A stretch of 64,000 nucleotides of DNA. It comes from Ignavibacteriota bacterium. GTDB taxonomy: Bacteria > Bacteroidota > Ignavibacteria > UBA10030. The position numbers and the translations under genes were made by a program. Numbering within the stretch: position 1 is the stretch's first letter; each line of letters begins with the position of its first letter. The stretch spans positions 1,419,041 to 1,483,040 of the forward strand of contig CAVYML010000009.1 of NCBI GenBank assembly GCA_963769605.1. The letters are read 5' to 3'. The notes under the pieces were generated by a model that was not told the origin of the DNA, did no database searches, and worked only from the letters and a program-made list of their open reading frames with translations. This document shows positions 2,310-26,843 of this stretch, in pieces.

Positions 2310-2351
2310 TTCTTCTTTTTAAAAATTGAGAACTGATTCGTGATGTTGTCT

Positions 2352-8471: not shown

Positions 8472-8472
8472 C

Positions 8473-9204: not shown

Positions 9205-9215
9205 TTTTTTAAATA

Positions 9216-10430
9216 GTGGATATAATGAATAGTAATCTGCCGAAACAGTGGAAGGTCTTAAAGCTTGGATATCTATGCAAAACAGCGACTGGTGGGACTC
9301 CTAGAAGAAATAATCCGAATTATTACACTGGCAAAATTCCTTGGGTAAAGTCTGGTGAACTTGATTATAATACGATTTTAGACACAGAGGAAAAGATAAC
9401 CAAAGATGCGATAGAGAACTCCAATGCAAAGCTATTTCCCAAAGGGTCAATACTCATAGCACTATATGGAGCTACCATCGGAAAACTGGCTATTCTCGGA
9501 ATAAATGCTACGACAAACCAAGCAATATGCGCTATATATAAAAGCGCATCTATAGAATCGAAATACCTATTTCATTTTCTTTTCTCGAAGAAACAATTCC
9601 TTGTCAAACAAAGCTTTGGCGGGGCACAACCGAATATAAGCCAAACGATACTAAGAAATCTGGATGTTCCTCTTCCACCACTTCCAGAACAACACCGCAT
9701 CGTTGCCAAAATAGAAGAACTCATTAGTGATTTGGATAAAGGAGTCGAGAGCTTAAAGACCGCACAGCAGCAGCTCAAGACCTACCGCCAGTCCGTGCTC
9801 AAATGGGCGTTTGAAGGCCACTTCACAAATAAGAACATGAAGGAAGGCGAATTGCCGGAGGGATGGAAGTGGGTGAAATTTGGTGACGTTCATGATATTA
9901 AATCAAACCTCGTAGATTCGTTAAAATATTTAGACATGCCCCATATTGCCCCTGATAATATATCCAAAGGAATTGCAAAATTATTAGGTTATAGAACTAT
10001 CAGAGAAGATAAAGTGATCAGTGCAAATCATAAATTTTTTAAAGGTCAAATAGTATATTCAAAAATTCGCCCTAATCTGACAAAAGTTATTATCGCTCCT
10101 ATCGATGGATTATGTAGTGCCGATATGTATCCGATTGATTCCAAGTATAATAATCGATATACGCTTTATTATATGTTGACTAATTCATTTGTTAAGATTG
10201 CATCAAATACTGAATCGCGAACTATTCTTCCAAAAATTAATCAAAAGGGATTAAATGCAATTCCTTTTCCTCTTTGTCCACAAGAAGAGCAAAACCAGAT
10301 TGTCCAAGAAATCGAAAGTCGTTTAAGTGTCTGCGATAAATTAGAAGAGACCATCACAGCAAACTTGCAGCAATGCGAGTCGCTGCGGCAAAGCATATTG
10401 AAGAAGGCGTTTGAAGGAAGGTTAACATAA
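9216..10430 (+). CDS. hsdS: Type I restriction-modification specificity subunit (HsdS)
   Basis: Two target-recognition domains are separated by the conserved central repeat (LPPLPEQHRIVAKIEELISDLDKG...VLKWAFEG) and the C-terminal repeat (CPQEEQNQIVQEIESRLSVCDKLEE...ILKKAFEGRL). The N-terminus is KLGYLCKTATGGTPRRNNPNYY. Confidence 0.9.
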   Translation: MDIMNSNLPKQWKVLKLGYLCKTATGGTPRRNNPNYYTGKIPWVKSGELDYNTILDTEEKITKDAIENSNAKLFPKGSILIALYGATIGKLAILGINATTNQAICAIYKSASIESKYLFHFLFSKKQFLVKQSFGGAQPNISQTILRNLDVPLPPLPEQHRIVAKIEELISDLDKGVESLKTAQQQLKTYRQSVLKWAFEGHFTNKNMKEGELPEGWKWVKFGDVHDIKSNLVDSLKYLDMPHIAPDNISKGIAKLLGYRTIREDKVISANHKFFKGQIVYSKIRPNLTKVIIAPIDGLCSADMYPIDSKYNNRYTLYYMLTNSFVKIASNTESRTILPKINQKGLNAIPFPLCPQEEQNQIVQEIESRLSVCDKLEETITANLQQCESLRQSILKKAFEGRLT

Positions 10431-10447
10431 ATAAAGGATAAAATACT

Positions 10448-12229
10448 ATGAATATAGCACCTCATAGATTAAGCATAGCTCAATTATTTGCGAGTAATAA
10501 CGAACAATTTATTGTTCCATCGTATCAGCGAAGATATGCATGGGGATACAATCAAACAGCAGCACTGTTTGATGATATAGCAATGTTAAAAAAAGAAGAC
10601 GGACATTTATTAGGAATGATTATATTGCATTGCGAAACGCATAGCGGAGATCTTAACAGACCGGAATTAGTTGATGGCCAACAACGGCTGACAACCCTCG
10701 CAATACTATTAAAAGCAATGCAATCGAGGTTCTTAGAATTAGAGAATATGGACAAAGTCTCTGATATAGAAAAAATGCTTACTTGTCATGGTCTCGATGA
10801 GAAAAAACTCCCAAAGTTGGAACTTGGTGATCTTGATCATGATGATTTAAACACACTACTTTCAAATGACCGGACAAAGGAATTCACTAACCATAATATT
10901 AAAGAAGCATACGATAATTTTAAGAATAGGATTGATGTTTTAAAAAACGATGAGTTACAAAAATATTTTTTCTCTTTAACAAATGTGGCAGTTATTATTC
11001 GCCTTGACGTGGAAAAAGCGCAAGATGCATATAAACTTTTTGAAACAATCAATAACCGTGGATTAAGACTATCTCCAACTGATATCATTAAAAATTTCCT
11101 CCTTGGACATGCAGCTAAACTTGAACCAGAGATATTCGTAAAAACGAAATCTTTATGGTCATCGATAATTACGAATCTGGACGGTATTGATTCGGACGAT
11201 TTCCTTAGGCAGTATCTCTGCTCATTATTAGTAAGGAAAGTAAGTTCATCTCAAATGGTGTATGAATTCAAAAAATATTATTTCAAACATATAAAAGATG
11301 CTGATAAACTTGGCGAATTTAGCTATTACGTTGATGAAAAAGTGCTAAATGATGAAGAGGAAACGAATGGGGAAGAATTAACGTCCGAACAAGAAATAGA
11401 TAACGGAAAAGATTCCCAAATAACTATTATAGAGTTCCTACAGAAAATCGAAGAGATTTCAAAAGTTTATAGAAAGATATCGTTAGAAGAATATGAAGAA
11501 GAAAAAGTAAATAGGCATATCAAATATTTAAACAAGATACTTTCAAGACCTACCTATATATTCCTTATGCATTTTTTGCAAAAAAACTTATCTGAAAGCA
11601 TAAAAGTCGAAGTTCTAAAAGTCCTTGAAGCATTTATGCTGCGCCGCCACATTTGCGAAAAAAGGACTGGCGAACTAGACGATATATTCTCAAAAACAAT
11701 GAAGATTATTGAATCAACAGATATTGTAGGTGATTTGCGCAAACAACTTGCTCCCGATGTTCCATCAGATGAAGCATTTAAAAATAGCTTTCCATTGCAT
11801 GTGTTTAAAGGGAAGTTAATCGATCGAGCAAAATATGTACTAGAGCAAATAGAATATCACGTAAATGGAAATACGGGAGAGCTGATCGTCGCCAGCAGTT
11901 CAGAGGTAGAGCTCGAACATGTGATACCACAAACAATATCAACTAAAAGATCCAAGGAAGAATATGGAGATTGGGAAGAATATCTAGGTCCTAATAGTTT
12001 ACAGCTTCATGAGAAATTTATTAACCTCATTGGAAATATGACACTATTGGCAGATGCATTAAACATTCAGGCCTATAACAACCCGTTTGCAAAGAAGAAG
12101 AACAGCTATAAAAAATCAAATTTTGTAATTACAAATGAGTTAGCAAAATTATCTAATTTTAGGTTTCCCAATGTGTCTAAGAGGGGTCAAGCATTAGCGG
12201 AAAAAGCAACAAAGATTTGGAAGGTTTAA
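10448..12229 (+). CDS. DUF262/DUF1524 protein; GmrSD-like modification-dependent (type IV) restriction endonuclease family
   Basis: The N-terminal DUF262 domain has the DGQQR motif (VDGQQRLTTL). The C-terminal DUF1524/His-Me finger-like region has ELEHVIPQ. 593 aa. Confidence 0.75.
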   Translation: MNIAPHRLSIAQLFASNNEQFIVPSYQRRYAWGYNQTAALFDDIAMLKKEDGHLLGMIILHCETHSGDLNRPELVDGQQRLTTLAILLKAMQSRFLELENMDKVSDIEKMLTCHGLDEKKLPKLELGDLDHDDLNTLLSNDRTKEFTNHNIKEAYDNFKNRIDVLKNDELQKYFFSLTNVAVIIRLDVEKAQDAYKLFETINNRGLRLSPTDIIKNFLLGHAAKLEPEIFVKTKSLWSSIITNLDGIDSDDFLRQYLCSLLVRKVSSSQMVYEFKKYYFKHIKDADKLGEFSYYVDEKVLNDEEETNGEELTSEQEIDNGKDSQITIIEFLQKIEEISKVYRKISLEEYEEEKVNRHIKYLNKILSRPTYIFLMHFLQKNLSESIKVEVLKVLEAFMLRRHICEKRTGELDDIFSKTMKIIESTDIVGDLRKQLAPDVPSDEAFKNSFPLHVFKGKLIDRAKYVLEQIEYHVNGNTGELIVASSSEVELEHVIPQTISTKRSKEEYGDWEEYLGPNSLQLHEKFINLIGNMTLLADALNIQAYNNPFAKKKNSYKKSNFVITNELAKLSNFRFPNVSKRGQALAEKATKIWKV

Positions 12230-12234
12230 TGTGA

Positions 12235-12572
12235 GCGACGAAACAATATCAACTATATAGCATTGTCTCCAAAATCTGGTGGTTCTGTAATACACTCCAT
12301 AAAACAAGGAAACGTCATTGTGAGAAATGAGGACATCGACGATGGACGAATGACGAAGCAATCTGATAATCAATGAAGAGATTGCCACGCAACCTAATGG
12401 TCGCTTGCAATGACGGAGCAAGAGAGAGATTGCTTCGCTGCGCTTGCAATGACGAAGTAAGTCGGCATCGTCCTGACGATAGAAAGAAAATATAAGCAAC
12501 GAAACAACATCAACCAATATCATCATCTCCAAAGTCTGGTCGTTTTGCAATACACTCCGCGATGACGGTGTA
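12235..12572. repeat. Structured intergenic region with two extra copies of the hsdM 5' end (12235-12300 degenerate; 12495-12570 near-identical) and internal inverted repeats (CGAAGCAATCT / AGATTGCTTCG; GCAATGACG x3)
   Basis: Direct comparison with 14121..14192, the real hsdM start. The 12516-12570 copy translates to IIISKVWSFCNTLRDDGV. HsdM begins MSVNNSTNSIISKVWSFCNTLRDDGV. Confidence 0.85.
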
Positions 12573-12583
12573 GAAATTAAGCA

Positions 12584-14119
12584 ATGAGTATCGAACAGGT
12601 AAAAAAGTTGTTAAAACAAAAGGAAAGTGTTCGGCTGGAATTCAAGGAGGCCGAAAACGCTTTGCCGTCTAATTTATTCGAATCAATCTGTTCAATGCTC
12701 AATCACGACGGCGGTGATATTCTCTTGGGCGTAAATAATCATGGAGGAGTCGTGGGCGTTAATCCTGCCGCGGTTGATCGGTTGAAGACAGATATTGTAA
12801 ATCTTTCCAATAATCCTCAAAAGCTCGACCCGCCGAATATATTGTTTCCTCTGGTTTATACCGCTGGTGGAAAAAAGGTTATTCATATTCAAATACCCGC
12901 GAGTTCGCAGGTTCATAAGTCCGACCACGATGTATTCGATAGGAGCAATGATGGCGATTATCGCGTTAAGCAGCCGCAGCAAATAGCAGAGATTTATAAT
13001 CGCAAACGCTTACATTATACAGAAGGAATTATTTATCCCTATGTAAAGTTTTCCGATTTTAAGGCGGATCTTTTCCCGAAAGTCCGTAATCTAATAAAAA
13101 GCAATGAAGCCAACCATCCATGGCTTTCTTTGGCCGATCAAGAAATGTTGGAAAAGGCAGGATTGTGGAAAAAGGATTATCAATCCGGAAAAGAAGGATA
13201 TACGCTTGCCGCGGCATTGTTGTTTGGAAAAGATGAAGTCATTCAGCAGATTGTGCCTCATTATAAAACCGATGCCATACTTCGAATAAAAAATAAAGCT
13301 CGATATGATGATCGGGAATATGTCCAGACAAATCTTATCGAATCGTATGAAAAGCTCATGGCGTTTGTTGCCAAGCATTTGCCGGATAAATTCTATAAAG
13401 AGGGGAATCAACGCAGGAGCCTTCGCACTGCCATATTTCATGAAATAGTCTCCAATATCATCGTTCATCGTGAATATACCAATGCCTATCCGGCGACGAT
13501 GATTATCCACCCGGATCGTGTTGAGACCGAGAACGCCAATAACCCAAACGGTCATGGACCGATTATTCTGGGAACATTTACACCTTTTCCTAAAAATCCG
13601 ACGATTGCAAAATTCTTTATTCAATTGGGACTTGTCGAAGAATTGGGATCGGGTTTTATCAATGTGAATCGTCTTATTAAAGAATATGGCGACAAGGGTT
13701 CGCCTCAATTTATTGAAGGAAATACATTCAAAATGGTGATTCCGATAAGCCAAGCACTGATGATGAAACATGCCGGTATTGCCATTCCTATTCCTGGCGA
13801 TGGCGATGAAAGTAAGGGTGCAATTGAGGGAATAAGTGATGCTGTAAATGATGCTGTAAATGATGCTGTAAATGATGCTGTAAATGATGCTGTAAGTGAT
13901 GCTGTAAAAAATCGTCTTAGGGAAGAAGTAATAAGGATCCATACAAACGGCAAGGTGCGACTACCGGAGATTATCGAAATATTTAAAATAAAAAGAGCAA
14001 CAGCACAGAGAGACATGACAACCTTAAAAGAAGCAGGAATTGTCGAGTTTAAGGGATCGCCTAAAAATGGCGGCTATTATCTAACAAAAATGGCAACAAA
14101 GAAGCTGCAAAAATTATGA
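12584..14119 (+). CDS. AlbA_2 (divergent AAA / Schlafen-like DNA-binding) domain protein with a C-terminal ATPase-like region and wHTH; putative defence-associated regulator or sensor
   Basis: The N-terminus (KESVRLEFKEAENALPSNLFESICSMLNHDGGDILLGV) is typical of the PF04326 AlbA_2 domain. The C-terminal segment is HTH-like. It contains an in-frame DAVN x6 repeat. Its stop overlaps the hsdM start. Confidence 0.65.
   Translation: MSIEQVKKLLKQKESVRLEFKEAENALPSNLFESICSMLNHDGGDILLGVNNHGGVVGVNPAAVDRLKTDIVNLSNNPQKLDPPNILFPLVYTAGGKKVIHIQIPASSQVHKSDHDVFDRSNDGDYRVKQPQQIAEIYNRKRLHYTEGIIYPYVKFSDFKADLFPKVRNLIKSNEANHPWLSLADQEMLEKAGLWKKDYQSGKEGYTLAAALLFGKDEVIQQIVPHYKTDAILRIKNKARYDDREYVQTNLIESYEKLMAFVAKHLPDKFYKEGNQRRSLRTAIFHEIVSNIIVHREYTNAYPATMIIHPDRVETENANNPNGHGPIILGTFTPFPKNPTIAKFFIQLGLVEELGSGFINVNRLIKEYGDKGSPQFIEGNTFKMVIPISQALMMKHAGIAIPIPGDGDESKGAIEGISDAVNDAVNDAVNDAVNDAVSDAVKNRLREEVIRIHTNGKVRLPEIIEIFKIKRATAQRDMTTLKEAGIVEFKGSPKNGGYYLTKMATKKLQKL
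13837..13908 (+). repeat. Perfect 12-bp tandem repeat GATGCTGTAAAT, 4 copies plus 2 variants, encoding DAVN-DAVN-DAVN-DAVN-DAVS-DAVK
   Basis: Read directly from the sequence. It is in-frame inside CDS 12584..14119. Confidence 0.95.
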
Positions 14120-15612
14120 GTGTGAACAATTCAACAAACAGCATCATCTCCAAAGTCTGGTCGTTTTGCAACACACTCCGCGATGACGGCGTGGGGTACG
14201 GCGATTACTTAGAACAGCTTACATATCTGCTCTTTCTCAAAATGGCAGACGAGCTTGGCAAGCCGCCATATAACAAAAAGCTGCCTATCCCCAAAGAGTA
14301 TAACTGGGAAAGCTTAAAGAGCAAAAATGGCTCCGAGCTGGAAGCGCAGTATACAACCCTACTGCGCGAGCTTGGCAAACAAAAAGGAATGCTCGGGCAA
14401 ATCTTTACCAAGAGCCAGAATAAAATCCAGGACCCGGCAAAACTCTTTAAGCTCATCGATTTGATCGATAAAGAGCAATGGAATGTAATGGGCGCCGATG
14501 TGAAAGGCGAAATCTACGAAGGGCTGTTAGAGAAAAATGCGGAAGATACCAAGAGCGGGGCGGGACAGTATTTTACACCGCGCGCGCTTATCAAAGTAAT
14601 GGTGGAATGTCTGCGACCCGAACCGAACAAGAAGATCATCGATCCGGCATGCGGTACCGGCGGCTTCTTCTTAACGGCATACGATTACATACTTGCCAAT
14701 CACGAATTGGATAAAGGACAAAAGACATTCCTGAAGTATAAGACTTTCTTTGGCAATGAGATCGTTGCCAATACGCGCCGGCTATGCCTGATGAATCTCT
14801 TTTTGCATAACATCGGCGACATCGAAAGCGAATCGACCATCTCTCCGAACGACTCGCTTATTGCCGATAACAGCGAACGCTACGATTATGTGCTGACAAA
14901 TCCTCCGTTTGGTAAAAAGAGCAGCATGACATTTACGAACGAAGAGGGAGAGCAGGAAAAAGAAGATTTAACCTATAACCGTCAGGACTTTTGGGCAACG
15001 ACGAGCAACAAACAGCTCAACTTTGTGCAGCATATCCATACTATTTTAAAGACAACCGGATTAGCGGCGGTTGTTGTGCCGGATAACGTACTGTTTGAAG
15101 GAGGCGCGGGAGAGACTGTCCGGAAGAAATTATTGGAAACGACAGACCTGCATACCATTTTGCGTCTGCCGACAGGAATTTTTTATGCAAATGGCGTGAA
15201 GGCAAATGTGATATTCTTTGATGCGAAACCTGCCTCCAAAGAACCGTGGACAAAGGAACTCTGGTATTACGATTACAGAACCAATGTGCATCACACGCTC
15301 AAGAAAAGCACATTGAAACAAAGCGACCTGAAAGAATTTGTCGAATGCTACAATCCAAAAAACCCTAACAAGCGGAAAGAGTTATACAACGAGAAAACGA
15401 ACCCCGAAGGCCGCTGGCGGAAATTTACATACGAAGAAATCATCAGCAGAGACAAGACCAGCTTAGACATTACGTGGTTAAAAGATAAATCCTTAGCCGA
15501 TCTGGACAACCTGCCCGATCCTGATGTCCTTGCTGCGGACATAGTCGAGAATCTGGAAGCGGGGCTGGAGAGTTTTAAAGAAATCATAGCATCATTGAAT
15601 GGGAAAGGGTAA
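14116..15612 (+). CDS. hsdM: Type I restriction-modification DNA methyltransferase subunit (HsdM), N6-adenine
   Basis: Motif I is IDPACGTGGFF and motif IV is LTNPPFGKK. The HsdM_N-like N-terminus is SKVWSFCNTLRDDGVGYGDYLEQLTYLLFLKM. 498 aa. Confidence 0.92.
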   Translation: MSVNNSTNSIISKVWSFCNTLRDDGVGYGDYLEQLTYLLFLKMADELGKPPYNKKLPIPKEYNWESLKSKNGSELEAQYTTLLRELGKQKGMLGQIFTKSQNKIQDPAKLFKLIDLIDKEQWNVMGADVKGEIYEGLLEKNAEDTKSGAGQYFTPRALIKVMVECLRPEPNKKIIDPACGTGGFFLTAYDYILANHELDKGQKTFLKYKTFFGNEIVANTRRLCLMNLFLHNIGDIESESTISPNDSLIADNSERYDYVLTNPPFGKKSSMTFTNEEGEQEKEDLTYNRQDFWATTSNKQLNFVQHIHTILKTTGLAAVVVPDNVLFEGGAGETVRKKLLETTDLHTILRLPTGIFYANGVKANVIFFDAKPASKEPWTKELWYYDYRTNVHHTLKKSTLKQSDLKEFVECYNPKNPNKRKELYNEKTNPEGRWRKFTYEEIISRDKTSLDITWLKDKSLADLDNLPDPDVLAADIVENLEAGLESFKEIIASLNGKG

Positions 15613-16395: not shown

Positions 16396-16929
16396 CTAAT
16401 AGCAATGAACATATTTTTTTATCTGAGAATTACCCTGATAGATTGGGTCTGAAGGTATTTGCTTGAGAATGTGTATTTCAGATTTGCTCACTAATATATC
16501 AAAGAGTGTATCTTCGCTTAATTGGTAAACATTCAAGATAATTGTGGATATTACTTTAAGAATTAAAGATACATTGTAATCGCATTCTAAGCGCAAATAG
16601 ACGGCTCTTCTTTTTGAGGTTTCAATAATCCTAATCGTAGAAGGGATGTTCTTCTTTTTCAATTCTGTTTGTACTAATTTAAGGAATTCATATTTTCCTT
16701 TTTTTGTGGGGATAAAAATCGACATGCGTTTCCCAACATCGTAATATCTCTCTGTCAGCATGATAACGGTTTTGTTTATATCGATTAGCAAACTCATGTG
16801 CTTTGCCCAGGGAGTTGGCAAAAGAAATTCAATAATCGAAGATTTAATTGAATTTAAAAGCACATTCTTTTTCAATCCTCTATCAAAATGGCGTGATGAA
16901 AATTTGAATATGTTGTAATAAAGATTCAT
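16396..16929 (-). CDS. Hypothetical protein (AT-rich; possible orphan immunity or accessory gene of the RHS locus)
   Basis: An intact 177-aa ORF in a block that looks markedly more AT-rich than its surroundings (16.2-18.2 kb), downstream of and co-oriented with the RHS toxin gene. No recognisable motif. Confidence 0.4.
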   Translation of the reverse strand: MNLYYNIFKFSSRHFDRGLKKNVLLNSIKSSIIEFLLPTPWAKHMSLLIDINKTVIMLTERYYDVGKRMSIFIPTKKGKYEFLKLVQTELKKKNIPSTIRIIETSKRRAVYLRLECDYNVSLILKVISTIILNVYQLSEDTLFDILVSKSEIHILKQIPSDPIYQGNSQIKKYVHCY

Positions 16930-17033
16930 ACTTATGTCAAAATATGCACAACAATCTTTTAAAGGTCTTTTTTATCCTACTCTTATTTCGTAATAAAATA
17001 TGTTCAATAGGCACGTTTTTAAAATAAGATTTC

Positions 17034-17549
17034 TTAAATACTTTGCTCTTCCTGTTTTTCAAATTCAATTGTCATGACTGTTGTCTGAAACAAACGATCA
17101 ACCGCATGCATATAAGCGCCCGTCCGTTTATCCTTGCGAAAATTGCTTGAATAAAAAATAGCATTGACGATAATACCGGCATAGAAGAAACTTGGTAATA
17201 TCATCCATAACAACAAGAGGCAGCAGACAAATTGACGTGCGCATAATTTTAATCTGCCGATTCGATGCCCATGCAAATCTGTAACTCCGATTTTTATTAC
17301 TGCGTCACCTACTCCCGCAAAATTTGCATACAGCGGCAAACCGATTCCCAAAAAGATCGTATACATTCCCCAAAGTGAATATAGTGTCCAAGAAAACAAT
17401 GAAACATCGGGAATAGGATTGAAATTGTATTTACCTGCAACCATTGCGACAGGGGGAAGAAGAATTATAATATCACATAAGAATGCAACAATCCTTTTCC
17501 AGGGTGCTGCAAGCTTTTTACTTTTCCATTGGATGTTACGTGAAGGCAT
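17034..17549 (-). CDS. Small integral membrane protein, RDD-family-like
   Basis: 171 aa with about 3-4 predicted TM helices. The N-terminus (KRIVAFLCDIIILLPP) resembles the RDD family start (RxxAxxIDxxI). Co-oriented and 3' of the RHS gene. Confidence 0.4.
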   Translation of the reverse strand: MPSRNIQWKSKKLAAPWKRIVAFLCDIIILLPPVAMVAGKYNFNPIPDVSLFSWTLYSLWGMYTIFLGIGLPLYANFAGVGDAVIKIGVTDLHGHRIGRLKLCARQFVCCLLLLWMILPSFFYAGIIVNAIFYSSNFRKDKRTGAYMHAVDRLFQTTVMTIEFEKQEEQSI

Positions 17550-17584
17550 AACGACTTGCTCATTTTATAGATTACATGTCTGGA

Positions 17585-18184
17585 TTATTTTTTGGATGAT
17601 CCGTTTTCCTCCAAAAGAGGCACTACTAATATGGATGCAAATGTTTTAGCAATTAATTTTGAAAATTCAATGACAAGTTTTTTATTATATTGCCTACGTG
17701 CAAAATATAGCGTCTCGCCTATATTATTTGAAAGAATTATTTGGATCACAGCAAAAATGCCTGAATGTCCTGAAGATATCACATCAGCACGAATACCTTT
17801 AATATTTGTTGAATTGATAATCACTTGATTGATACCGCCAAAATATTTCTTATATCCTAGAGTAAGAAAATCATGTTCAACATTGATATTCATCGGATGT
17901 TTAGTTACAGTCCATCTATAAAGGAGAAAAATGATAAGAAATAATAAAATTAAATATAGATAAACAATTTTAGGTGCGGCAACCAATTGTCTAAAAACGA
18001 TAAACGTTATAATAAGCAAAACAAACATTGCTTTTATATCATATCGTCTGTGAAGTCTGAGATAACTATCGCCTTGACTTACTATTTTGTACGGGGCTAT
18101 AGCTTTTTTTAAGTCAATATTGTCAATCATTTTTCCTCCAACTATGAGATTATTATAGCAATAAATCTCTATTTTAATAATCAT
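17585..18184 (-). CDS. Small integral membrane protein, candidate immunity protein for the upstream RHS toxin
   Basis: 199 aa (or about 182 aa from the internal MIDNIDLK start). There are 2-3 hydrophobic TM segments. Its start overlaps the RHS gene stop by about 10 nt. This is the classic position for a polymorphic-toxin immunity gene. Confidence 0.5.
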   Translation of the reverse strand: MIIKIEIYCYNNLIVGGKMIDNIDLKKAIAPYKIVSQGDSYLRLHRRYDIKAMFVLLIITFIVFRQLVAAPKIVYLYLILLFLIIFLLYRWTVTKHPMNINVEHDFLTLGYKKYFGGINQVIINSTNIKGIRADVISSGHSGIFAVIQIILSNNIGETLYFARRQYNKKLVIEFSKLIAKTFASILVVPLLEENGSSKK

Positions 18185-21100
18185 CTAGTTTCCAAATAAC
18201 TTTTGCACCAGCATAGATTGCCATGGTTACATTCATCGTATAAACAAGTTTTTGAAATTTTGGACTTATTACAGAAACATGGGCAAGTGATCCCACTAAT
18301 AAACCAGCACCAATCGCTTCGGAGAGATCACATCCTGCCTCATTAAATCCTAATGTCTTTGCAAGCGCCTGAATGCCGCTGCTCTCTACTTCGTGCGCAT
18401 TCTCCTTTTGTGAATATCTAGCAAAATTATCTGTTCCAGCACCAATCCCAAACATATCTAATCCCGCAGAAATAATATCCGTATAGCTAATAGCTTTTCC
18501 ACCCGAGGCTATTGCTTTATCTAGTATAGCAAGCAAATCTATAACAGCTGCGAAAATAGTAGCTGTGGCTACAGCCTGGCCCTTATTAATACTAAATCCA
18601 AGGTTAATTCCGAAACCAAGATCAGCAACCCCACCATTTATATCAATCATATTCACAGGATTATTACTTGTATAGCAATAGTGATTCGAAGATCCAGATC
18701 CAAATAAAAGCGGATCTTTTCTTGTCCATCTCCCAGTAATTGCATCATAATCTCTTGCTCCAAATCTTACCAATCCCGTTTGCATGTCGTACAATCCTCC
18801 GGCAAATCCCATGGGCACAATTTGTTGACCGATGAAGTTAGTCACATTGCCGAATTCATCATAATCCATCTGTTGAACAACCTGGCCAGTCGATGAATTA
18901 ATTACTTGCCGGACGCTGCCAAGCTGGTCTGTCACAATTCGATATGCAATACCGGCTTTTAAGATGTACTCAGGCGCATTTTGCTTTGTCGCATAAACAA
19001 AATGACTTATGACATTTCCCATACTGTCAACTTCTGCGCTGATTCTTAATTCATCGCTATATAACCATCGTTGAGTAATTTGTCCATTCACCTTCCGTAT
19101 GATACGCCGTCCAGCCCCATCACTGATATACTCAATGCGCGAAGAATTTGGAAGAACCACGGAGAGAAGATTTCCCATCGCATCATAATCGTAACGAGTG
19201 GTATCCGTTCCCGAAATCTTCATCTTTAAATCGCCGTTTTGAGAATAGAAGTATTGAGCATTACCATAATGAAGAAGGCGATCCTGTGCATCATAAAATC
19301 CGCTGTCAACTTGAATGAGAGCAGCATGTGCAATTCGATTTCCATTTGGATCGTAGGAATATGTCGATACTATCGTATCGTTTTTCGATACCTGCAGAAG
19401 CTGTCCCTTTGCATCGTAGAGATAAGTGTATTTTGTTTTTATGCCAGAAACGGAATCGATCTTCTCAGTGATCCTTCCAAGACTGTCCCTTGAGTATCGA
19501 GCCTGATATAGTATGGTTGATCCATAAAGTGTTTGCTGACTTGCAGTTTCTCCGAAAGCATTATAAGTATAATTTGTCACTACACTCCCCAGAGTGTCGC
19601 ATAGTAATAGGTTATTTGCAGGACCCGATTTTAATTTGAGTATTCCTGCAGATATAAGCAAACCATCCTTATCATAAGCAAAATTGATGCTGTCCTTATT
19701 ATTGATGGTCTCTGACAAAATTTCCATATCGTTGTTGTATCTAACCTTTACACTTCCATTGATAGAACCAGTCCAGTGAACATTCTTTGGCAATTGTCCA
19801 TCATACTGATATAATAAAGAGTCTCCATTGGGAGAGATTACTCCAGTGACCAATCCTTTTACTGTGTCATAGAGGAAGGTCATTGTACCTCGATTGTACG
19901 AAATGCATTTCGGCTGTCCAGCTAACGATCCCTTACCGCCATAGAAGAAATCCATATTCAAACTGTCGGGTCTGGCAATTCGCGTGATCTCTTTATCATA
20001 ATTGTAGGATTTTGTCGTTGCTCTCTCGCTGTCACCTGCAAACGGTGGAATATATTTTTGCTCAAGGTCTACAGCCGTGTACTCAAAGTTATGTGACGGT
20101 TTAGAAGGAGGAATAATCGAAAGCATATTTCCATTATGGTCGTACGTGAATGATACTTCCGAAGAATCCGGCAAAATAGTTTCTACCAATCTATCTCCGG
20201 CATCATAAAAGAACTGCGTATTGTGCCCATAAGGATCCGCAACCTTTGCTTGCCTGCCGAGCGAATCGTAGGCATAAGTCGTTATCCTACCGCCCTGTGA
20301 AGTTTGAATCTTCCTTCCTCTTATATCGTACTTATACATTGTTGGTGCAAGTCCCGCTGTGGAATCTTTGATATCTTTTCCTTTTGCATCATAGAACGAA
20401 AAAGTTTTTCTTCCTTCTGCGCTGGTCTTTGTCAGCATCCGTGCATTGCCGTCCCATTGCGTTGTGTATGTCTTTCCATTGACCTGAACATTATCCGTTA
20501 AACCGGTTACACTGTTGCCGGTCATTTGCGTAATGGTGCGGGTCTGGTCCACGGTGGATTGCAGACCGCCCGGAGTATTTACAGTAACATTCTGCAAAGG
20601 TGTCTGCATGCCGAAACGTGGATCAGGCGTTTGCTGATCTGGCGTGTTTGTACCATTTGGAACCGTTGTTGTCGATGTACCGTCGGTACCAATGGTCGTT
20701 ATCGTTTTAAGTCCGTTCGCATCGGTATTGGTCAACACGCGGGAGCCATCGTGCAGCTTATCCACGCGGTATATCGTCTTCTTTCCCATTGCCGTTAATG
20801 AAGTAACCGTATATCCGACGCTGTCATACTGCCGCGATAGATTTGTATAACCACCGGCAGGGTCCATATCTTTTGTCAAATAGCCGAGCGTATCATAAGA
20901 ATAATTGTATGTATTGCCGCGTGCATCGGTTTTACTCGTCATCAATCCACCGGTGGTGTATGTGAATATATTCGATTCATACGCAGGATTTGTTGCCTGC
21001 AATAAATATCCGAGCGTATCAAGCTGCAAATCCGTGCGAACTCCATACGGCGATATAATAGCCGTAGCCATTCCGGCTATGTCCCGATCGATAGTTATAA

Positions 21101-24100
21101 TATTGCTATCGACGTCGACAATCGACGTAAGATGATAGAGAGAATTGTAATTAAATTTATATTTTACAACGCCCGTCAGTGCATCAAGCGTGCGTAAGTG
21201 TCTGCCGCCGTACGAAAAAACGTACTGCTCGCTGCCGTCTTCGGATGCGATGAGGATCTCACTGAGCGAGATGCCGGGAAGAGGCGGAGAAACTTTGAAA
21301 ATATGTGCCCCTTCGCATACATATAAGTTATCGTCAGATCCTGTCGCAATATTCATATAATTTCCAAGTGAGTATGCTCCGGCTGGGCAATTATCCAGCC
21401 AGGAATTACTTCCACCACCCACCACTGTCTTGATGTAACCATCGCTCGATATTCCTCTGACCGCCCCCCATGTAACAAAATACAATGTTCCATCTTTCCC
21501 TAATGCAAGGCTATAAGGGTATCCGACACGCGCATTTACGGCAAGCCCGCCGTCTCCGGAATTATAGTTTTCGCCCGTTCCGGCTATCGTATGTATAATT
21601 CCGTCAGGAGTAATTTTTCTTATATGAGAACCCAAGCCTTCACCGAAATAAATAGTGCCATCATCCGCCACTTTCATGGTTGTAGTTCCGTCATTATGGA
21701 GTCCTCCCGAAACCGGCTGCAACCCTCCATAAAGTGCGGCTTTTGTTGCAGGACCTCCGTCACCACTCGAACCTTGCACGCCATTACCGGCAACTGTTGT
21801 TACAATGCCATCGGGAGAAATTTTTCTGATACGATGGTTGCCTCCTTCAAAGATATAGCAACTTCCATCTTTTCCGAATGCGATAGGAGACGGTTCATAG
21901 AAAAACGCCTGCGTTGCGGGTCCGCCATCTCCGCCAAAAGAATTGGCACGCCAAATTCCGGCATATCGAATTCGTTCTCCATATTGAGTGACCTTCCATA
22001 TTACTCCATTCGACACGTCTGCCACATAGAGATTTCCATCCGGTCCGAAAGCAAGTGAACAACCTAACTGACTAAAGCTACAGCATTTTGCTTGCTTGGT
22101 TGTACTTGAGTCATCCCAAGTATAAACAGCCCAGTTAGCCGGAAGTCCTCCAATTGTACTTATGACACCTGATGAATCTATTTTGCGAATCATATAGTTA
22201 AAATAATGCAATTCATTTGTATTACTAAAGGTGAAATTACTCATTCCAAGATCTGAATTCTGTGTTGCAATTGTCCCTTCCAGGCCTAAAGAAGCGCAGA
22301 CGCTATTGATCGAAACATCTTTCTTCCCCGCAATTGTTGTCGTAACATTATCCATGAGTTGCGCATTACGAATCTGCCCATCGCCTTGATAGAGAGTTCT
22401 GCCGACACAATCGTAACTATGATGGATATTCAAACTCCAGCCGCCTATGCCGAGCGATACGATATCGAATGCGCCGATTTTACCTTCCCAAATTTGTGTT
22501 TTTTGAATCGCTTTTAGTGTCGGGATATATTTCGTCATTTGTGTTCCTGACGGCGTTGCAAAGCAATTGCTGTAATCCGGCGGCAATGCATATTGAGCCG
22601 AATAAGAATAAGTAATCTTTGTCATAATGTTTTGCTGGCCCTGAGTTCTTCGGCCGTACGCGTCCAAACCATCCCAAACAAAATGATAAGTAAGATTTGT
22701 TTGCGGAGAAAAGCTGTAAGTAAACTTTTTCCCGATAATTTCCACATCCAGTGTAATATCAGAAATTCCCTGTGGTAGAGATGCGCCCGTCAGGGGAATA
22801 TCGAGTGCATACGCTTCTTTACGTCCAAAAACCCTGTCGCTCCTATAATTGAGCGTAATACCGGTATTGGTTAGAGGAATCGATTCCGAAAGTGTCTGGT
22901 CCTGTAGTCCGATAACCGATCCTGCAACGACATTGTCTTTTTCAATTTTCGTATAGCGATCCGGCAATGCATTATGCGGTTCTTGCGCGTTCGACGGCCC
23001 GAGCATAGTAAACCCCGCCGCAAACGTTCCCAGATGCGTTATTTCACAGCGCCAGAGCGACTGACCTTTTTTATAGTTCGCAGCAAGATATTGTTGTTCA
23101 GTCGATGAAATTCCTTTCGCGCTAAGCGTATCCGATGATTCCGCAATACCGTCTCCATTATAATCTATCGATGCAATGCTCCCGACTGTATCCATTATTT
23201 TGATTACTTTTCCATTTGTTGATGTCTTCCATACTCCATTCTGCTTATCGTACCAGCCAAAAGGAATTGTCAATCCAACCGGAAAGTTCATTACATTTTC
23301 AAGATAAAAAACTGCCGGCTGACTGAATCGAAGATCTCTTGCCCCGCTGCTCATCATTTCATCGGCACTCAATTCAAAGGCAAAAGTATACGCTACTCCG
23401 GTTGGCAACACCCCCGGAATTGCAAATTCTCCACTTGCATTTGCAGTATATTCGGTCAAACGAAGTGAGACAATATTAACAGGCAGAAGGCTATCGAGCA
23501 AGACAGGAATTAATACCTGAGGGGCTGTTACCGTCTTAAAACAAGTATATGAACAGCTGGACAATATTTTATAGAAATACTTATCAAACACCAAATTCGT
23601 CGATGTACCCGGTCGAATAAACAGAGCAGGTTCCCGTACACCTAAAGAATCAGTTACCTGATCTCCTTGCACTATTTGAGGCATAGATACATCGACATGA
23701 TGCACCACGGTATCCAAAGGCATAAGGATAACATCGTCTGCGTGCCTGTATAATAGTAATCGTGCATCGACTTGCCGTTGTGCCGACAAATATCCTATGC
23801 GTTCATAATTGACAGTGAGGTATGCCCCTCCATTCACGACAAAATCATACATGCCATCGTCTCTGGTGATTGTACTGCCGTATTCATCATGTTTTAATAT
23901 CGTGACACCAACACCTTTAAGGGGTTGATGCTTTTCATTCAATACTCTGCCACGTATGATGGAAACGCGAGCCTTACTAATTGTTCCCGCAGTTACTCCT
24001 TTTTGTATCGGATTCGATCCTGAGTATAAAAATTCGCTCGCATCGCCTATGTTTGTTGCGATAGTTGTATCAAGCTTCGGTGCAATCAATCCGGGATCGG

Positions 24101-26843
24101 GCACCGGCAAAACTCTTGTTACCGATCTATTGAATGTCGATATATTGCCGGCTTGATCGATTGCTGCAATTGAAATCGTATTTTTTCCTTGGATCAAACT
24201 CAGGACGGACTTAAACCCGCCATTTTGATCCGCTCTTTGCAGTATACCATTGATTGTGATCGTTGTACCTGAAGCATCGTTGATGCTGCCAAGGATGGAA
24301 ACGACCGAATCAATAATTGTACCGCCTGCGAGTGGTGCAATAAGGTTAATGATGGGCGGTTTTGTATCGCGGATTATAAATCTCCGTATCGTAATCTTAT
24401 TACCTAAGACATCAGCGGCATCCAGAGTAAATATATTCATGCCTTCATTTAGAGAGAGCGTATCTGTAAACGATCCGTCTGAATGGACAGAAAATGCAAT
24501 ACCATTTATCGTGAATAAGACAGACGTTGAATCTATTACAGAACCGGTTATAATCACTTTTGTGTTATTTGTCATGAGACTATCGGATGGAGTCAGAATG
24601 GTTATATCTGGAGGCTGCGTGTCCAGACGGACATGACGCACGAAAGAGGTAACGTTCCCGGCTCCATCGGTTGAAGATATTTGTATAAGGTTCATTCCTT
24701 CATTTAACGGCAATGTATCATTAAATGAACCATCAGTATGAACATTGATGGCATTATTATTAACCAGCAAAGAGACTTTTGTTGAATCGCTTACGGTTCC
24801 TGTAATTGCAAGAAAATTATTTTTTGTCACTAACGAGTCTGTCGGCGTAATAATTTTCAACACAGGCGACTGCGAATCTTTTCGTACATACAGTGTGTAA
24901 CTTGTTCGATTTCCAGCGGCATCAGTTGCTACAAGTGTTATTGCATTGATCCCTTCAATCAAATTAATTTGCCATGTAAAAGAATTATTCAAAATAGAAA
25001 CACTATCGCCATTTACGGTCAGCAAAACAGTTGTCGAATCCGTTACCATGCCGCCGACAGTTATTGCGGGAAGATTGGTTATGAGACCGTCAACAGGAGA
25101 TTTTAAAACGAGAACCGGAGGCTGGGTATCAAGCCTTATCGTTCGGACAATTGAACTTGTATTTCCGGCTGCATCGACTGCGGCAATTGTGATCGTATTC
25201 AATCCTTCGGACATCGACAGAGTATCGATAAAACTTCCATCGATATTTACAGCATGGACAATCCCATTGATTGTAAGCATCATCGCTGTCGAATCTTTGG
25301 CTGTTCCCGAAACAATGACGGATGGGGAATTGGTAACAGTGAAGCCGGGAGGCTGTGAGACAACCAATGCAGGCGGTGTGCGATCACATACAACCAGCTT
25401 TGTAACCGTCGTCTGATTTCCGGCAGCGTCTGTTGCAACAATTATAATACTTTCTTTTCCTTCGTTTAAAATGACTTCAGAAGAAAATGATCCATTTGTG
25501 ACAGGCACACTTTTCCCATTGACCGTCAATGTTACGGATGTGGAATCGGAGATTGCTCCATTTACCTTGATTGACGAAGCATTTGTAATCATGCTGTCAA
25601 CTGGAGACTGGATATTGCAAACGGGAGGCTGCGTGTCTAAACGCACTGTTCGTACTGCCGAACTGCTATTTCCAGCGGCATCCGTGGCAATGCACGTAAT
25701 CGTATTCAATCCTTCGGTGAGTGTCATGACCGATTGGAACGATCCATCCGATTGAATATCTGCAGGCGAGCCATTGATTGTCAACGTATTATTCCCTGTC
25801 TCGCCGGCAAAAGGAGTTATCACACCCTTAATCGTTAAGGATGTTTGATTTGTAATAAGATTTTCTGCCGGCGCACTGAGCGTAAGAACGAGGGGTTGTG
25901 CATTCATAATCACTTTTCTAATAACGGTCATTGTATTACCGTCATTGTCTCTTGCCTGCACTATAATAGTGTTCAGTCCTTCCTGAAGCGGCACATCGGA
26001 AGAAAATTCTCCGTGATGCACGGGGACTTTTACTTTATTAATCATTACGGTGACTTTTTGGCTGCCCTGCTGTTCCGCAACCGTGCCATAGACATGAACG
26101 GTCGAACTTGCTGTGACGAATCCATCCGCAGGCGCGGTGACAATGAGCAGCGGACGTACGGCTGTTGCTTTACGTTCGCGGATTTCCCACGTCAAAGGCT
26201 TGCCATCGAAAATGACGGAAAAAACATTATGATGTACTCCCGGTCTGAAAACCTCCGGCTGACCGCGGTCAAATGGAGAAGGCTCTAAATGATTGAGCGG
26301 CCCGATTGGAATTGGTACTTCAAAAAGATTCTCGTTTTGATAACCAAAATATGCCGTAAAGCTTCCATCAACGTTGACGGCGATATTATCCACTATTGGA
26401 AAAATTGCATGCAGATGTTTTATGCAATGCAGACGTAAGAACGATCCCCGTTTCCCTTCCAGGAAAATTTCTATTTTACAGTTTCCTTTTAAGCGGATTT
26501 CTTTTTCTATTTTATCGAAGTCTTTTGCAAAATCGGACGCTGAACAGATCACTTCTCCGTTGACCTTGATCGTTGCGCCGGTGATCCGGTTTTGTCTGCT
26601 GTCGGAATCGCCGTTGAAAATTTCCAATGTAAAAGGAATTTCATCTTGTACCGGTAGAAAGATGGTTTCCGTATAGTGATTTGATGTCTCTGCAGGATCA
26701 CTGCCGGGTATACGTTCGTATTTTTTTAGTGCAAGTATTTCCCAATCGTCATCCCCCGCGGGAATCAGCGGCTGCATCGGTTGAGCGAAGGAGAGTGAAA
26801 AAAACACGACCCCTGAGAATATTCCCCACGAAATGTTTTTCAT
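18174..26843 (-). CDS. Secreted teneurin-like RHS/YD-repeat polymorphic toxin: signal peptide, about 9 tandem Ig-like domains, carboxypeptidase-regulatory-like domain, NHL beta-propeller, YD-repeat shell, Rhs core, and a variable hydrophobic Gly/Ala-rich C-terminal toxin domain
   Basis: 2889 aa. The signal peptide is MKNISWGIFSGVVFFSLSFAQP. Tandem ~90-aa repeats of the form LDTQPPV..SPVDS..TN...V.G...DST.V.LTVNG...DGSF...L.L.EG.N.I...A.D.AGN are present. The CarbopepD_reg-like segment is RGRVLNEKHQPLKGVGVTIL...GMYDF. NHL-like blades carry GDGGPAT motifs. There are many YD repeats (YDALGR, YDANGN, YDSLGR). The Rhs core end is ARDYDAITGRWTRKDPL...NHYCYTSNNPVNMIDINGG. After it comes a 151-aa C-terminal domain. 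Confidence 0.88.
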   Translation of the reverse strand: MKNISWGIFSGVVFFSLSFAQPMQPLIPAGDDDWEILALKKYERIPGSDPAETSNHYTETIFLPVQDEIPFTLEIFNGDSDSRQNRITGATIKVNGEVICSASDFAKDFDKIEKEIRLKGNCKIEIFLEGKRGSFLRLHCIKHLHAIFPIVDNIAVNVDGSFTAYFGYQNENLFEVPIPIGPLNHLEPSPFDRGQPEVFRPGVHHNVFSVIFDGKPLTWEIRERKATAVRPLLIVTAPADGFVTASSTVHVYGTVAEQQGSQKVTVMINKVKVPVHHGEFSSDVPLQEGLNTIIVQARDNDGNTMTVIRKVIMNAQPLVLTLSAPAENLITNQTSLTIKGVITPFAGETGNNTLTINGSPADIQSDGSFQSVMTLTEGLNTITCIATDAAGNSSSAVRTVRLDTQPPVCNIQSPVDSMITNASSIKVNGAISDSTSVTLTVNGKSVPVTNGSFSSEVILNEGKESIIIVATDAAGNQTTVTKLVVCDRTPPALVVSQPPGFTVTNSPSVIVSGTAKDSTAMMLTINGIVHAVNIDGSFIDTLSMSEGLNTITIAAVDAAGNTSSIVRTIRLDTQPPVLVLKSPVDGLITNLPAITVGGMVTDSTTVLLTVNGDSVSILNNSFTWQINLIEGINAITLVATDAAGNRTSYTLYVRKDSQSPVLKIITPTDSLVTKNNFLAITGTVSDSTKVSLLVNNNAINVHTDGSFNDTLPLNEGMNLIQISSTDGAGNVTSFVRHVRLDTQPPDITILTPSDSLMTNNTKVIITGSVIDSTSVLFTINGIAFSVHSDGSFTDTLSLNEGMNIFTLDAADVLGNKITIRRFIIRDTKPPIINLIAPLAGGTIIDSVVSILGSINDASGTTITINGILQRADQNGGFKSVLSLIQGKNTISIAAIDQAGNISTFNRSVTRVLPVPDPGLIAPKLDTTIATNIGDASEFLYSGSNPIQKGVTAGTISKARVSIIRGRVLNEKHQPLKGVGVTILKHDEYGSTITRDDGMYDFVVNGGAYLTVNYERIGYLSAQRQVDARLLLYRHADDVILMPLDTVVHHVDVSMPQIVQGDQVTDSLGVREPALFIRPGTSTNLVFDKYFYKILSSCSYTCFKTVTAPQVLIPVLLDSLLPVNIVSLRLTEYTANASGEFAIPGVLPTGVAYTFAFELSADEMMSSGARDLRFSQPAVFYLENVMNFPVGLTIPFGWYDKQNGVWKTSTNGKVIKIMDTVGSIASIDYNGDGIAESSDTLSAKGISSTEQQYLAANYKKGQSLWRCEITHLGTFAAGFTMLGPSNAQEPHNALPDRYTKIEKDNVVAGSVIGLQDQTLSESIPLTNTGITLNYRSDRVFGRKEAYALDIPLTGASLPQGISDITLDVEIIGKKFTYSFSPQTNLTYHFVWDGLDAYGRRTQGQQNIMTKITYSYSAQYALPPDYSNCFATPSGTQMTKYIPTLKAIQKTQIWEGKIGAFDIVSLGIGGWSLNIHHSYDCVGRTLYQGDGQIRNAQLMDNVTTTIAGKKDVSINSVCASLGLEGTIATQNSDLGMSNFTFSNTNELHYFNYMIRKIDSSGVISTIGGLPANWAVYTWDDSSTTKQAKCCSFSQLGCSLAFGPDGNLYVADVSNGVIWKVTQYGERIRYAGIWRANSFGGDGGPATQAFFYEPSPIAFGKDGSCYIFEGGNHRIRKISPDGIVTTVAGNGVQGSSGDGGPATKAALYGGLQPVSGGLHNDGTTTMKVADDGTIYFGEGLGSHIRKITPDGIIHTIAGTGENYNSGDGGLAVNARVGYPYSLALGKDGTLYFVTWGAVRGISSDGYIKTVVGGGSNSWLDNCPAGAYSLGNYMNIATGSDDNLYVCEGAHIFKVSPPLPGISLSEILIASEDGSEQYVFSYGGRHLRTLDALTGVVKYKFNYNSLYHLTSIVDVDSNIITIDRDIAGMATAIISPYGVRTDLQLDTLGYLLQATNPAYESNIFTYTTGGLMTSKTDARGNTYNYSYDTLGYLTKDMDPAGGYTNLSRQYDSVGYTVTSLTAMGKKTIYRVDKLHDGSRVLTNTDANGLKTITTIGTDGTSTTTVPNGTNTPDQQTPDPRFGMQTPLQNVTVNTPGGLQSTVDQTRTITQMTGNSVTGLTDNVQVNGKTYTTQWDGNARMLTKTSAEGRKTFSFYDAKGKDIKDSTAGLAPTMYKYDIRGRKIQTSQGGRITTYAYDSLGRQAKVADPYGHNTQFFYDAGDRLVETILPDSSEVSFTYDHNGNMLSIIPPSKPSHNFEYTAVDLEQKYIPPFAGDSERATTKSYNYDKEITRIARPDSLNMDFFYGGKGSLAGQPKCISYNRGTMTFLYDTVKGLVTGVISPNGDSLLYQYDGQLPKNVHWTGSINGSVKVRYNNDMEILSETINNKDSINFAYDKDGLLISAGILKLKSGPANNLLLCDTLGSVVTNYTYNAFGETASQQTLYGSTILYQARYSRDSLGRITEKIDSVSGIKTKYTYLYDAKGQLLQVSKNDTIVSTYSYDPNGNRIAHAALIQVDSGFYDAQDRLLHYGNAQYFYSQNGDLKMKISGTDTTRYDYDAMGNLLSVVLPNSSRIEYISDGAGRRIIRKVNGQITQRWLYSDELRISAEVDSMGNVISHFVYATKQNAPEYILKAGIAYRIVTDQLGSVRQVINSSTGQVVQQMDYDEFGNVTNFIGQQIVPMGFAGGLYDMQTGLVRFGARDYDAITGRWTRKDPLLFGSGSSNHYCYTSNNPVNMIDINGGVADLGFGINLGFSINKGQAVATATIFAAVIDLLAILDKAIASGGKAISYTDIISAGLDMFGIGAGTDNFARYSQKENAHEVESSGIQALAKTLGFNEAGCDLSEAIGAGLLVGSLAHVSVISPKFQKLVYTMNVTMAIYAGAKVIWKLDDY

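Follow-up and report, generated by a model that had tools for sequence, protein, structure and literature searches.

What does the C-terminal tip of a very large bacterial Rhs-type protein do when it resembles no known toxin, and how would the cell that makes it be spared? The question is raised by a 64,000-nucleotide stretch of DNA from an Ignavibacteriota bacterium (GenBank assembly GCA_963769605.1, contig CAVYML010000009.1, positions 1,419,041 to 1,483,040 of the forward strand; the whole stretch is called the window here and coordinates are counted from its first nucleotide), the minus strand of which encodes a 2889 amino acid protein ending in a 151-residue tip. A preliminary description of the locus had proposed that this tip is a membrane-disrupting toxin. 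We identify the protein as a bacterial teneurin-like protein (TLP). Because its tip is non-enzymatic by the available tests, predicted to be all-helical, mildly hydrophobic and paired, like its relatives, with proteins carrying a transmembrane (TM) hairpin, a membrane-depolarising or membrane-permeabilising toxin is the best-supported reading, and we lean modestly towards it.

The carrier protein and its junction

From N- to C-terminus the protein comprises a signal peptide, eight Ig-like repeats, TTR, FN-plug, NHL propeller, YD shell, Rhs-associated core and toxin tip. Pfam recognises eight copies of Glucodextran_B (Glucodextran_B/Big_13 Ig-like repeats), RHS_repeat, TTR_TEN1-4 (1.3e-21), TEN_NHL (5.4e-17) and TEN_YD-shell (5.9e-37), together with the FN-plug at 8e-6, slightly short of the cutoff for that family. 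The NCBIfam model TIGR03696 (Rhs-associated core) matches residues 2661-2737 above its cutoff, over profile positions 1-75 of 76 (3.1e-16). When PDB sequences are searched with phmmer, the top matches are 9pt5 and 9ifo, two entries of bacterial origin titled 'Teneurin-like protein' (the shell half matches at an E-value of 4.7e-128, the TTR-to-NHL half at 5.8e-205), with metazoan teneurins and type VI secretion system (T6SS) Rhs proteins scoring far behind. Since these two entries lie well ahead of other Rhs proteins and teneurins, the protein is, by sequence comparison, a bacterial TLP of the kind reported by Raoelijaona et al. (Nat Commun 2026; PMC13018210), who studied the Bacillus inaquosorum TLP (BiTLP, PDB 9pt5/9ifo). 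The parts of the gene that matter for what follows are these:

18174..26843, minus strand: full toxin gene, a single open reading frame (ORF) for the 2889 amino acid bacterial TLP (YD-shell polymorphic toxin)
18630..18863, minus strand: Rhs-associated core and aspartyl autoprotease plug (residues 2661-2738; TIGR03696)
18753-18755, 18714-18716 and 18642-18644, minus strand: putative catalytic residues R2697, D2710 and D2734, respectively, placed by alignment to BiTLP
18630..18644, minus strand: junction D-I-N-G-G (residues 2734-2738), read off the sequence and aligning to the DPxG(L) of relatives

The window protein shares with BiTLP the TTR, FN-plug, NHL and YD-shell superfold, the geometry of the catalytic Arg/Asp/Asp residues, and a polymorphic, hydrophobic C-terminal domain (CTD), about 15 kDa in size, that is directly followed by an immunity gene (here a candidate). 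It differs in its N-terminal region of eight Ig-like repeats, in its diderm Ignavibacteriota host, in the length of the tip (151 amino acids against about 93 in BiTLP) and in the junction itself (DINGG against DPxGL). The two tips are without detectable similarity: with 9pt5_A, phmmer aligns the protein up to chain residue 2145, equivalent to query residue 858, which is the junction, and the alignments to BiTLP and to all other Rhs structures likewise end exactly there.

The end of the Rhs core reads ...SSNHYCYTSNNPVNMIDINGG / ...GSGSSNHYCYTSNNPVNMIDINGG (...NPVNMIDINGG), and exactly 151 amino acids follow it (18177..18629, minus strand); on the core end, the peptides quoted, the length after DINGG and the coordinates, the preliminary description was accurate. 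It also held that DINGG replaces the usual DPxGL motif and that the cleavage site is thus non-canonical. The sequence does depart from the textbook motif: against PxxxxDPxG(L), the window's PVNMIDINGG keeps the P, D and G but has Ile for Pro at position 2 and Gly for Leu at position 5. The catalytic residues, however, are intact. The BiTLP autoprotease comprises R2103, D2116 and D2140, and its cut falls after L2144 (PMC13018210); the spacing of R2697, D2710 and D2734 (13 residues, then 24) is identical. The Pseudomonas aeruginosa protein Tse5 (RhsP1) uses D1141 and D1164 and is cut at L1168|I1169 (PMC10684867), its DPXG-X19-DPXG motif, cleaved after Leu, again differing from DINGG.

A survey of 81 junctions taken from 79 related loci shows how loose the motif is in nature. 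The Asp is invariant (81/81) and Gly occupies position 4 in all but two cases (79/81), but Pro is found at position 2 in only 45 of the 81 and Leu at position 5 in only 50, so that neither position can be regarded as defining, and 'non-canonical' overstates the case. Variants in relatives include DYNGG, DINGL, DISGN, DPKGN, DVSGT, DLNGL and DSSGH. Because the Asp and Gly are near-invariant while positions 2, 3 and 5 vary, DINGG is, judged from these alignments, one of the less common forms of a motif that is loose by nature, the catalytic apparatus not having been replaced, and cleavage is likely to occur after G2738 and before V2739. In the tip family described below, the last motif residue is never Leu (G, G, N, T, Q, N and T in the seven members); a non-Leu residue at this position either travels with the tip module or suits it.

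Might DINGG instead abolish autoproteolysis, leaving the tip covalently attached as in the metazoan teneurins? Gly is rare at the last motif position (1/81 relatives) and Ile at position 2 scarcely less so (2/81), and the lack of Leu throughout the tip family points the same way. We nonetheless regard this as improbable: the three residues with a catalytic role in BiTLP, in Tse5 and in other Rhs proteins (PMC13018210; PMC10684867) are present at the right spacing, the variable motif positions differ widely among otherwise typical proteins, and the TIGR03696 alignment runs through the motif.

The tip and its relatives

The tip was sought by exhaustive phmmer searching of 1.8 billion representative proteins, by two word-indexed searches of 5.8 billion proteins and by a scan of metagenome DNA with a four-sequence tip profile. 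Together these yielded only three relatives, the DNA scan providing just one further copy of the P0001 locus, and the tip profile found three divergent members among the related loci that had been fetched:

P0001: tip, 72% identity; junction DPKGN
P0002: tip, 47% identity; junction DVSGT
P0003: tip, 50% identity over the matched stretch (P0003/L008 about 47%); the same tip as that of the full-length TLP of L008, junction DYNGG
L006, 3701-4114: divergent tip; hhalign probability 93%, E 2.5e-7
L007, 3819-4253: divergent tip; hidden Markov model (HMM) E 8e-19
L001, second orphan cassette: divergent tip; HMM E 1e-17

By these sequence searches the tip family is very rare and undescribed, with about seven divergent members. 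All are found either on cores of the same TLP clade or in orphan cassettes consisting of a core fragment and a tip (L001, L006), an arrangement that is a hallmark of Rhs C-terminal displacement. The cores themselves are much better conserved than what they carry: the nearest, in metagenome-assembled genomes (MAGs) of Ignavibacteriota, are 91% and 77% identical to that of the window protein, and cores with 50-91% identity bear unrelated tips of 50-250 amino acids. With one core bearing unrelated tips in its relatives, and this tip recurring in orphan cassettes, the proposal that it is a genuine C-terminal module of a polymorphic toxin is well founded.

No match to the tip was found in Pfam, NCBIfam, PHROGs or PDB sequences at thresholds relaxed to E<=1-10. 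Four family members gave no Pfam match at E<=10, the colicin pore domain PF01024 included, the tip profile retrieved only a chance match (and not 9pt5, at E<=10) from all PDB sequences, and tblastn of the tip against plasmid and phage genomes found nothing. In the seven-sequence alignment only three columns are invariant, an Ala, Asp58 and Asn68, and none is His, Cys, Arg, Glu or Lys. Readings of the tip as a HEPN toxin, nuclease, deaminase or ADP-ribosyltransferase (ART) were rejected on the lack of an invariant His, Cys, Arg or Glu in that alignment. The earlier statement that the tip has no nuclease or deaminase signature therefore stands, no enzymatic family having been matched in any of the four databases.

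The following segments can be distinguished within the tip:

18591..18629, minus strand: variable linker VADLGFGINLGFS (residues 2739-2751, 13 amino acids), without counterpart in P0001 and P0002 and different in L008
18177..18590, minus strand: conserved tip domain (residues 2752-2889, 138 amino acids), starting at IN-x-GQAV and predicted to be all-helical, with about five helices
18522..18578, minus strand: most hydrophobic segment QAVATATIFAAVIDLLAIL (tip residues 18-36; Kyte-Doolittle 2.03 for the 19-mer, Eisenberg <H> 0.74)
18423..18461, minus strand: best-conserved motif LDMFGIGAGTDNF (tip residues 57-69), containing Asp58 and Asn68, invariant in 7/7 members
18192..18317, minus strand: C-terminal putative helical hairpin, composed of AIGAGLLVGSLAHVSVISP, the loop KFQK and LVYTMNVTMAIYAGAKVIW (Kyte-Doolittle 1.58 and 1.15)

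The linker contains an imperfect 18-nucleotide tandem duplication (CTTGGTTTCGGAATTAAC / CTTGGATTTAGTATTAAT, 13/18 nucleotides identical, encoding LGFGIN / LGFSIN) that is absent from the homologues.

In composition the tip stands out from the rest of the protein. Its Ala content of 15.2% is the protein's maximum, every other 151-residue window having 9.9% or less, and QAVATATIFAAVIDLLAIL is the top-scoring Kyte-Doolittle 19-mer in all 2889 residues, only two other sites reaching 1.6. With Gly plus Ala at 26.5%, ILVFMW at 33% and a grand average of hydropathy (GRAVY) of +0.48, small and hydrophobic residues are indeed prominent, but to call the tip dominated by them, as had been done, is an overstatement when 16% of its residues are charged (net charge -4). 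Among 77 C-terminal tips of related proteins (mean GRAVY -0.38) it ranks second, the sole higher one being a homologue of the same tip, and GRAVY is positive in all family members (+0.19 to +0.55). As regards TM or amphipathic helices in these 151 residues, QAVATATIFAAVIDLLAIL scores highest and an amphipathic window reaches a hydrophobic moment (muH) of 0.46, with the two arms of the C-terminal hairpin scoring lower; TM propensity is borderline overall. The first of these, AIGAGLLVGSLAHVSVISP (19 residues), is the tip's only uncharged run of at least 19 amino acids, that is, long enough to span a bilayer.

The preliminary description also saw glycine-zipper-like spacing in the tip, and this reading we reject. 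The tip contains three GxxxG motifs (one of them inside the non-conserved linker), 17 small-xxx-small and five triple-small patterns and no GxxxGxxxG. In 5000 composition-preserving shuffles, the first three counts were within the range expected by chance (P = 0.25, 0.51 and 0.62, respectively). The apparent zipper signal is a matter of composition, not of spacing. Two of the arguments of the preliminary description, the zipper and the non-canonical cleavage motif, thus do not hold, whereas its observations are largely right and its interpretation is a reasonable one.

AlphaFold2, given a four-sequence alignment, models the tip as all-helical with five helices, two of which (tip residues 103-121 and 123-150) cover the C-terminal region, at low confidence (predicted local distance difference test, pLDDT, 44.7). 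A Foldseek search of the PDB with this model found nothing significant; generic helical-bundle matches, to a HEPN toxin and MakA among others, were dismissed, the best E-value being 0.49. Confidence is equally low for the candidate immunity protein described below (pLDDT 44.8), in both cases because the alignments are shallow.

Candidate immunity proteins and a proposed mode of action

Immediately downstream of the tip lies a small gene that co-varies with it, as is seen in TLP loci:

17585..18130, minus strand: candidate cognate immunity gene (imm181), 181 amino acids, with a TM hairpin (residues 34-52 and 52-70; Kyte-Doolittle 2.34 and 2.53) and a C-terminal region of about 110 amino acids

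The mechanically called ORF starts at 18184 and so overlaps the toxin stop codon. The likelier start is probably the ATG at 18130, which sits behind a GGAGG, with the 18184 start being a by-product of the codons of the toxin's ...LDDY* end. The GGAGGAAAAATG sequence is conserved, as is the GGAGG ahead of the ATG, and public gene calling also gives 181 amino acids. The product has no family match in Pfam, NCBIfam or PHROGs. A single homologue was found among 5.8 billion proteins, with 59% identity, and its gene immediately follows the 72%-identical tip in L001, a peat metagenome contig (the same as L085). This synteny suggests that the 181 amino acid two-TM protein is probably the immunity partner of the tip.

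A TM-hairpin protein is encoded after each member of the tip family, and it comes from one of three families: imm181, i287 (after the tip in L003, L004 and L008) and a DUF6585-like family (a 170 amino acid protein in L007). No significant relationship between imm181 and i287 was detected by hhalign (probability 6%). L001 also encodes a 28%-identical imm181 paralogue one cassette upstream. The segment concerned (13-3473) is a compact orphan array, comprising in order an i287-like membrane protein, the imm181 paralogue, an orphan core fragment with the P0001 tip, the imm181 homologue and a second orphan core fragment with a divergent tip, so that several paralogous tips of one superfamily are stacked there with membrane-protein partners.

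The mechanism that we infer would run as follows. The tip would be an exchangeable toxin module of a Sec-exported TLP, enclosed by the YD shell, from which the Rhs aspartyl autoprotease (R2697, D2710, D2734) would release it by cutting after G2738. The resulting fragment of about 15.5 kDa would consist of the short variable linker and the 138-residue helical domain. Once delivered to a neighbouring cell, the Ala/Gly-rich helical bundle would partition into the cytoplasmic membrane, entering through its N-terminal hydrophobic helix and C-terminal helical hairpin, and there dissipate the membrane potential or permeabilise the membrane. The invariant Asp58/Asn68 motif would probably serve in helix-helix association or line an ion path. 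The next gene downstream encodes the two-TM protein that would shield the producer, by binding the toxin inside the membrane.

There are two precedents for this arrangement. The BiTLP CTD is hydrophobic, has one predicted TM region and deforms membranes in simulations, and its export to the periplasm makes Escherichia coli permeable to propidium (PMC13018210). The Tse5 tip, of about 149 amino acids, inserts spontaneously into lipid monolayers, forms ion-selective pores and depolarises cells, and its immunity protein Tsi5 is a two-TM inner-membrane protein (PMC9637101; PMC10684867). The window protein resembles Tse5 in having an Rhs shell around a hydrophobic, non-enzymatic tip of about 150 residues and a two-Asp autoprotease, and its 151-residue tip, with TM or amphipathic segments, is likewise accompanied by an immunity candidate with two predicted TM helices; the mechanism proposed above follows the functional logic of Tse5. 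Unlike the window protein, Tse5 is a T6SS/PAAR-type Rhs protein without the teneurin superfold. No sequence relationship was found between the two tips, the matched Tse5 chain (8cp6_B, 1121 amino acids) being the shell only, so that the Tse5 C-terminal toxin (Tse5-CT) may have lain outside the search space.

More distant comparisons can be made with the ionophore toxins of contact-dependent inhibition (CDI), whose small CdiA-CT domains form bundles of five helices and become integrated in the inner membrane, and whose CdiI immunity proteins each consist of a two-helix TM hairpin, predicted to bind to the helices of the toxin inside the bilayer (PMC11630599). Five helices in the low-confidence tip model and a partner with a TM hairpin recall this arrangement, but the carrier there is CdiA in place of a YD shell, and CdiI consists of a hairpin of 72-100 amino acids only, without the additional domain of about 110 residues seen here. 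The resemblance to pore-forming colicin domains (PF01024) is one of concept only, namely a soluble helical bundle hiding a C-terminal hydrophobic hairpin and an integral-membrane immunity protein; there is no Pfam match at E<=10, and the tip domain has 138 amino acids and about five predicted helices against about 200 and 10. Hydrophobic membrane-permeabilising tips with two-TM immunity proteins are thus already known from Tse5/Tsi5 and the BiTLP CTD. What is new here is most likely a rare tip family within a known TLP/Rhs polymorphic-toxin system, and no new type of system. Should this be confirmed, the few membrane-targeting Rhs/YD-shell tips (Tse5-CT and the BiTLP CTD being those characterised) would gain a new sequence family, and the range of the bacterial teneurin-like toxins would come to include Ignavibacteriota. 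The 138-residue domain, in which two polar residues are invariant and for which several membrane immunity proteins occur as alternatives, would in addition be a compact test case, from which it could be learnt how helical toxins of marginal hydrophobicity enter membranes and are blocked there.

A number of observations weigh against a membrane toxin. TM propensity is borderline, with the second and third segments falling under the Kyte-Doolittle threshold of 1.6; the tip has a single uncharged run of 19 residues, and its net charge is negative. Nor is strong hydrophobicity family-wide, since the two most distant members have a Kyte-Doolittle maximum of no more than 1.33 (and a GRAVY of about +0.2). 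Glycine-zipper spacing is at chance level, both AlphaFold models are of low confidence and the fold search found nothing significant (values above), and no sequence similarity of the tip to the BiTLP CTD, colicin pore domains or other known membrane toxins is detectable. A membrane-anchored immunity protein is also compatible with a toxin that acts in the periplasm, and a public copy of the contig carries two frameshifts in the gene.

Several of these points would suit the main rival reading, in which the tip is an Ala-rich helical bundle that acts as a soluble toxin, its enzymatic or target-binding activity having gone unrecognised, and is neutralised by its membrane-anchored neighbour at the periplasmic face and not in the bilayer; its target might be periplasmic or membrane-associated (a lipid carrier, for example, or a membrane protein). 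The distant members are too weakly hydrophobic for TM helices, 16% of the tip's residues are charged and its net charge is -4, and in the immunity candidates the TM hairpin is followed by a soluble domain of about 100 amino acids. The best-conserved feature of the family, moreover, is the polar Asp...Asn pair (7/7 members), a potential catalytic or binding site, and the weak top fold matches are to soluble helical bundles, HEPN toxins included, although none is significant. Against this, no enzymatic family was matched even at permissive thresholds, the invariant residues typical of nucleases, deaminases, ARTs and HEPN proteins are lacking, every member of the family has a positive GRAVY in a setting where other tips average well below zero, and all the neighbouring candidates are integral membrane proteins. 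On balance we consider a soluble toxin fairly unlikely.

The frameshifts bear on a further alternative, in which the tip is mainly a device for membrane entry or translocation or an anchor, or else a decayed, non-functional module, and the locus no active toxin-immunity pair. The copy in question, ENA contig_12474 (ERZ25039473; L005), is 99.97% identical to the window, with substitutions at 23873, 21904, 20027, 11841 and 8732. Extra single bases at window positions 18790 and 19894, one of them at a GATC site, split the toxin gene into ORFs of 2325, 379 and 203 amino acids, where the window has one intact ORF of 8.7 kb. These indels are probably long-read assembly errors, though they may instead reflect a real pseudogene in the sampled population. 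The relatives L006 and L007 are also frameshifted at or just past the junction, and glycine-zipper or hydrophobic segments can serve translocation, not killing, in other effectors, as reported for Tde1 (PMC10240207). Yet no further domain follows the tip to serve as cargo, both the tip (72%) and its partner (59% amino acid identity) are conserved over their full length in another genome, and the frameshifts, found in assemblies whose contig names are of long-read style, look like assembly errors. We judge this alternative very improbable.

As a side observation, in L006 (3714-3735) and L007 (3646-3870), both from Ignavibacteriota MAGs, the tip continues in another frame after the frameshift, so that with contig_12474 three assemblies show indels near the junction. 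These may represent a systematic sequencing error or a real hotspot of phase variation or decay.

The reading of the tip as a membrane toxin can be taken further. Jointly, the tip would then represent an undescribed family of ionophores or pore-formers defined by the signature D-x-[FWY]-G-x-x-[AG]-x-x-x-N, restricted to Ignavibacteriota-type TLPs, diversified in orphan arrays, neutralised within the membrane and released at a non-Leu junction. Its hosts may be Ignavibacteriota-type soil and peat bacteria, and its neutralisers may be TM-hairpin proteins from at least three families without detectable sequence relationship. All of this together we hold to be possible but doubtful; if true, the Rhs aspartyl autoprotease would tolerate small or polar residues before the predicted cleavage site.

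Neighbouring genes and related loci

Two further genes follow imm181:

17034..17549, minus strand: RDD-family membrane protein of 171 amino acids (Pfam RDD 8.9e-11) with TM segments
16396..16929, minus strand: soluble protein of 177 amino acids without a family match

TM segments are predicted for the products of both 17585..18130 and 17034..17549, in agreement with the claim that the downstream immunity candidates are integral membrane proteins. The RDD protein has no homologue beside the tip family in the related loci and is possibly accessory. A 47%-identical homologue of the 16396..16929 product is encoded in L006 (2433-2939), directly after a different TLP tip (junction DFDGN followed by a 116-residue Ala/Gly-rich tip). 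Because its homologue follows a different tip, 16396..16929 is probably an orphan, an immunity gene retained in the absence of its toxin.

The G+C content falls from 42% in the Rhs core to 29-34% over the immunity gene and the end of the tip (17585..18300), and lies at 26-40% across 16300-18300, in a window with 44.8% overall. This drop is consistent with acquisition of the tip and immunity module by C-terminal displacement; a search for orphan Rhs fragments downstream in the window found none.

Directly downstream of the toxin operon, on the plus strand, lies a defence island (7344..15612). From gene calls and Pfam matches it comprises type I restriction-modification genes (HsdM-like N6_Mtase/Eco57I and HsdS Methylase_S), the type IV restriction system GmrSD, a protein of 503-511 amino acids without a family, DUF5131 and a GMT-wHTH protein.

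Hydrophobic Gly/Ala-rich tips are also found on TLP/YD relatives from unrelated phyla (L009, L010, L027, L039, L040, L053, L058, L064, L074 and L080), and because so many such relatives bear them, membrane-type tips appear to be a common class on the TLP/YD scaffold. In one of these, L053, the tip GGGIGGAIGGAIGGGIGSAIGGGIGG is a true glycine-zipper run.

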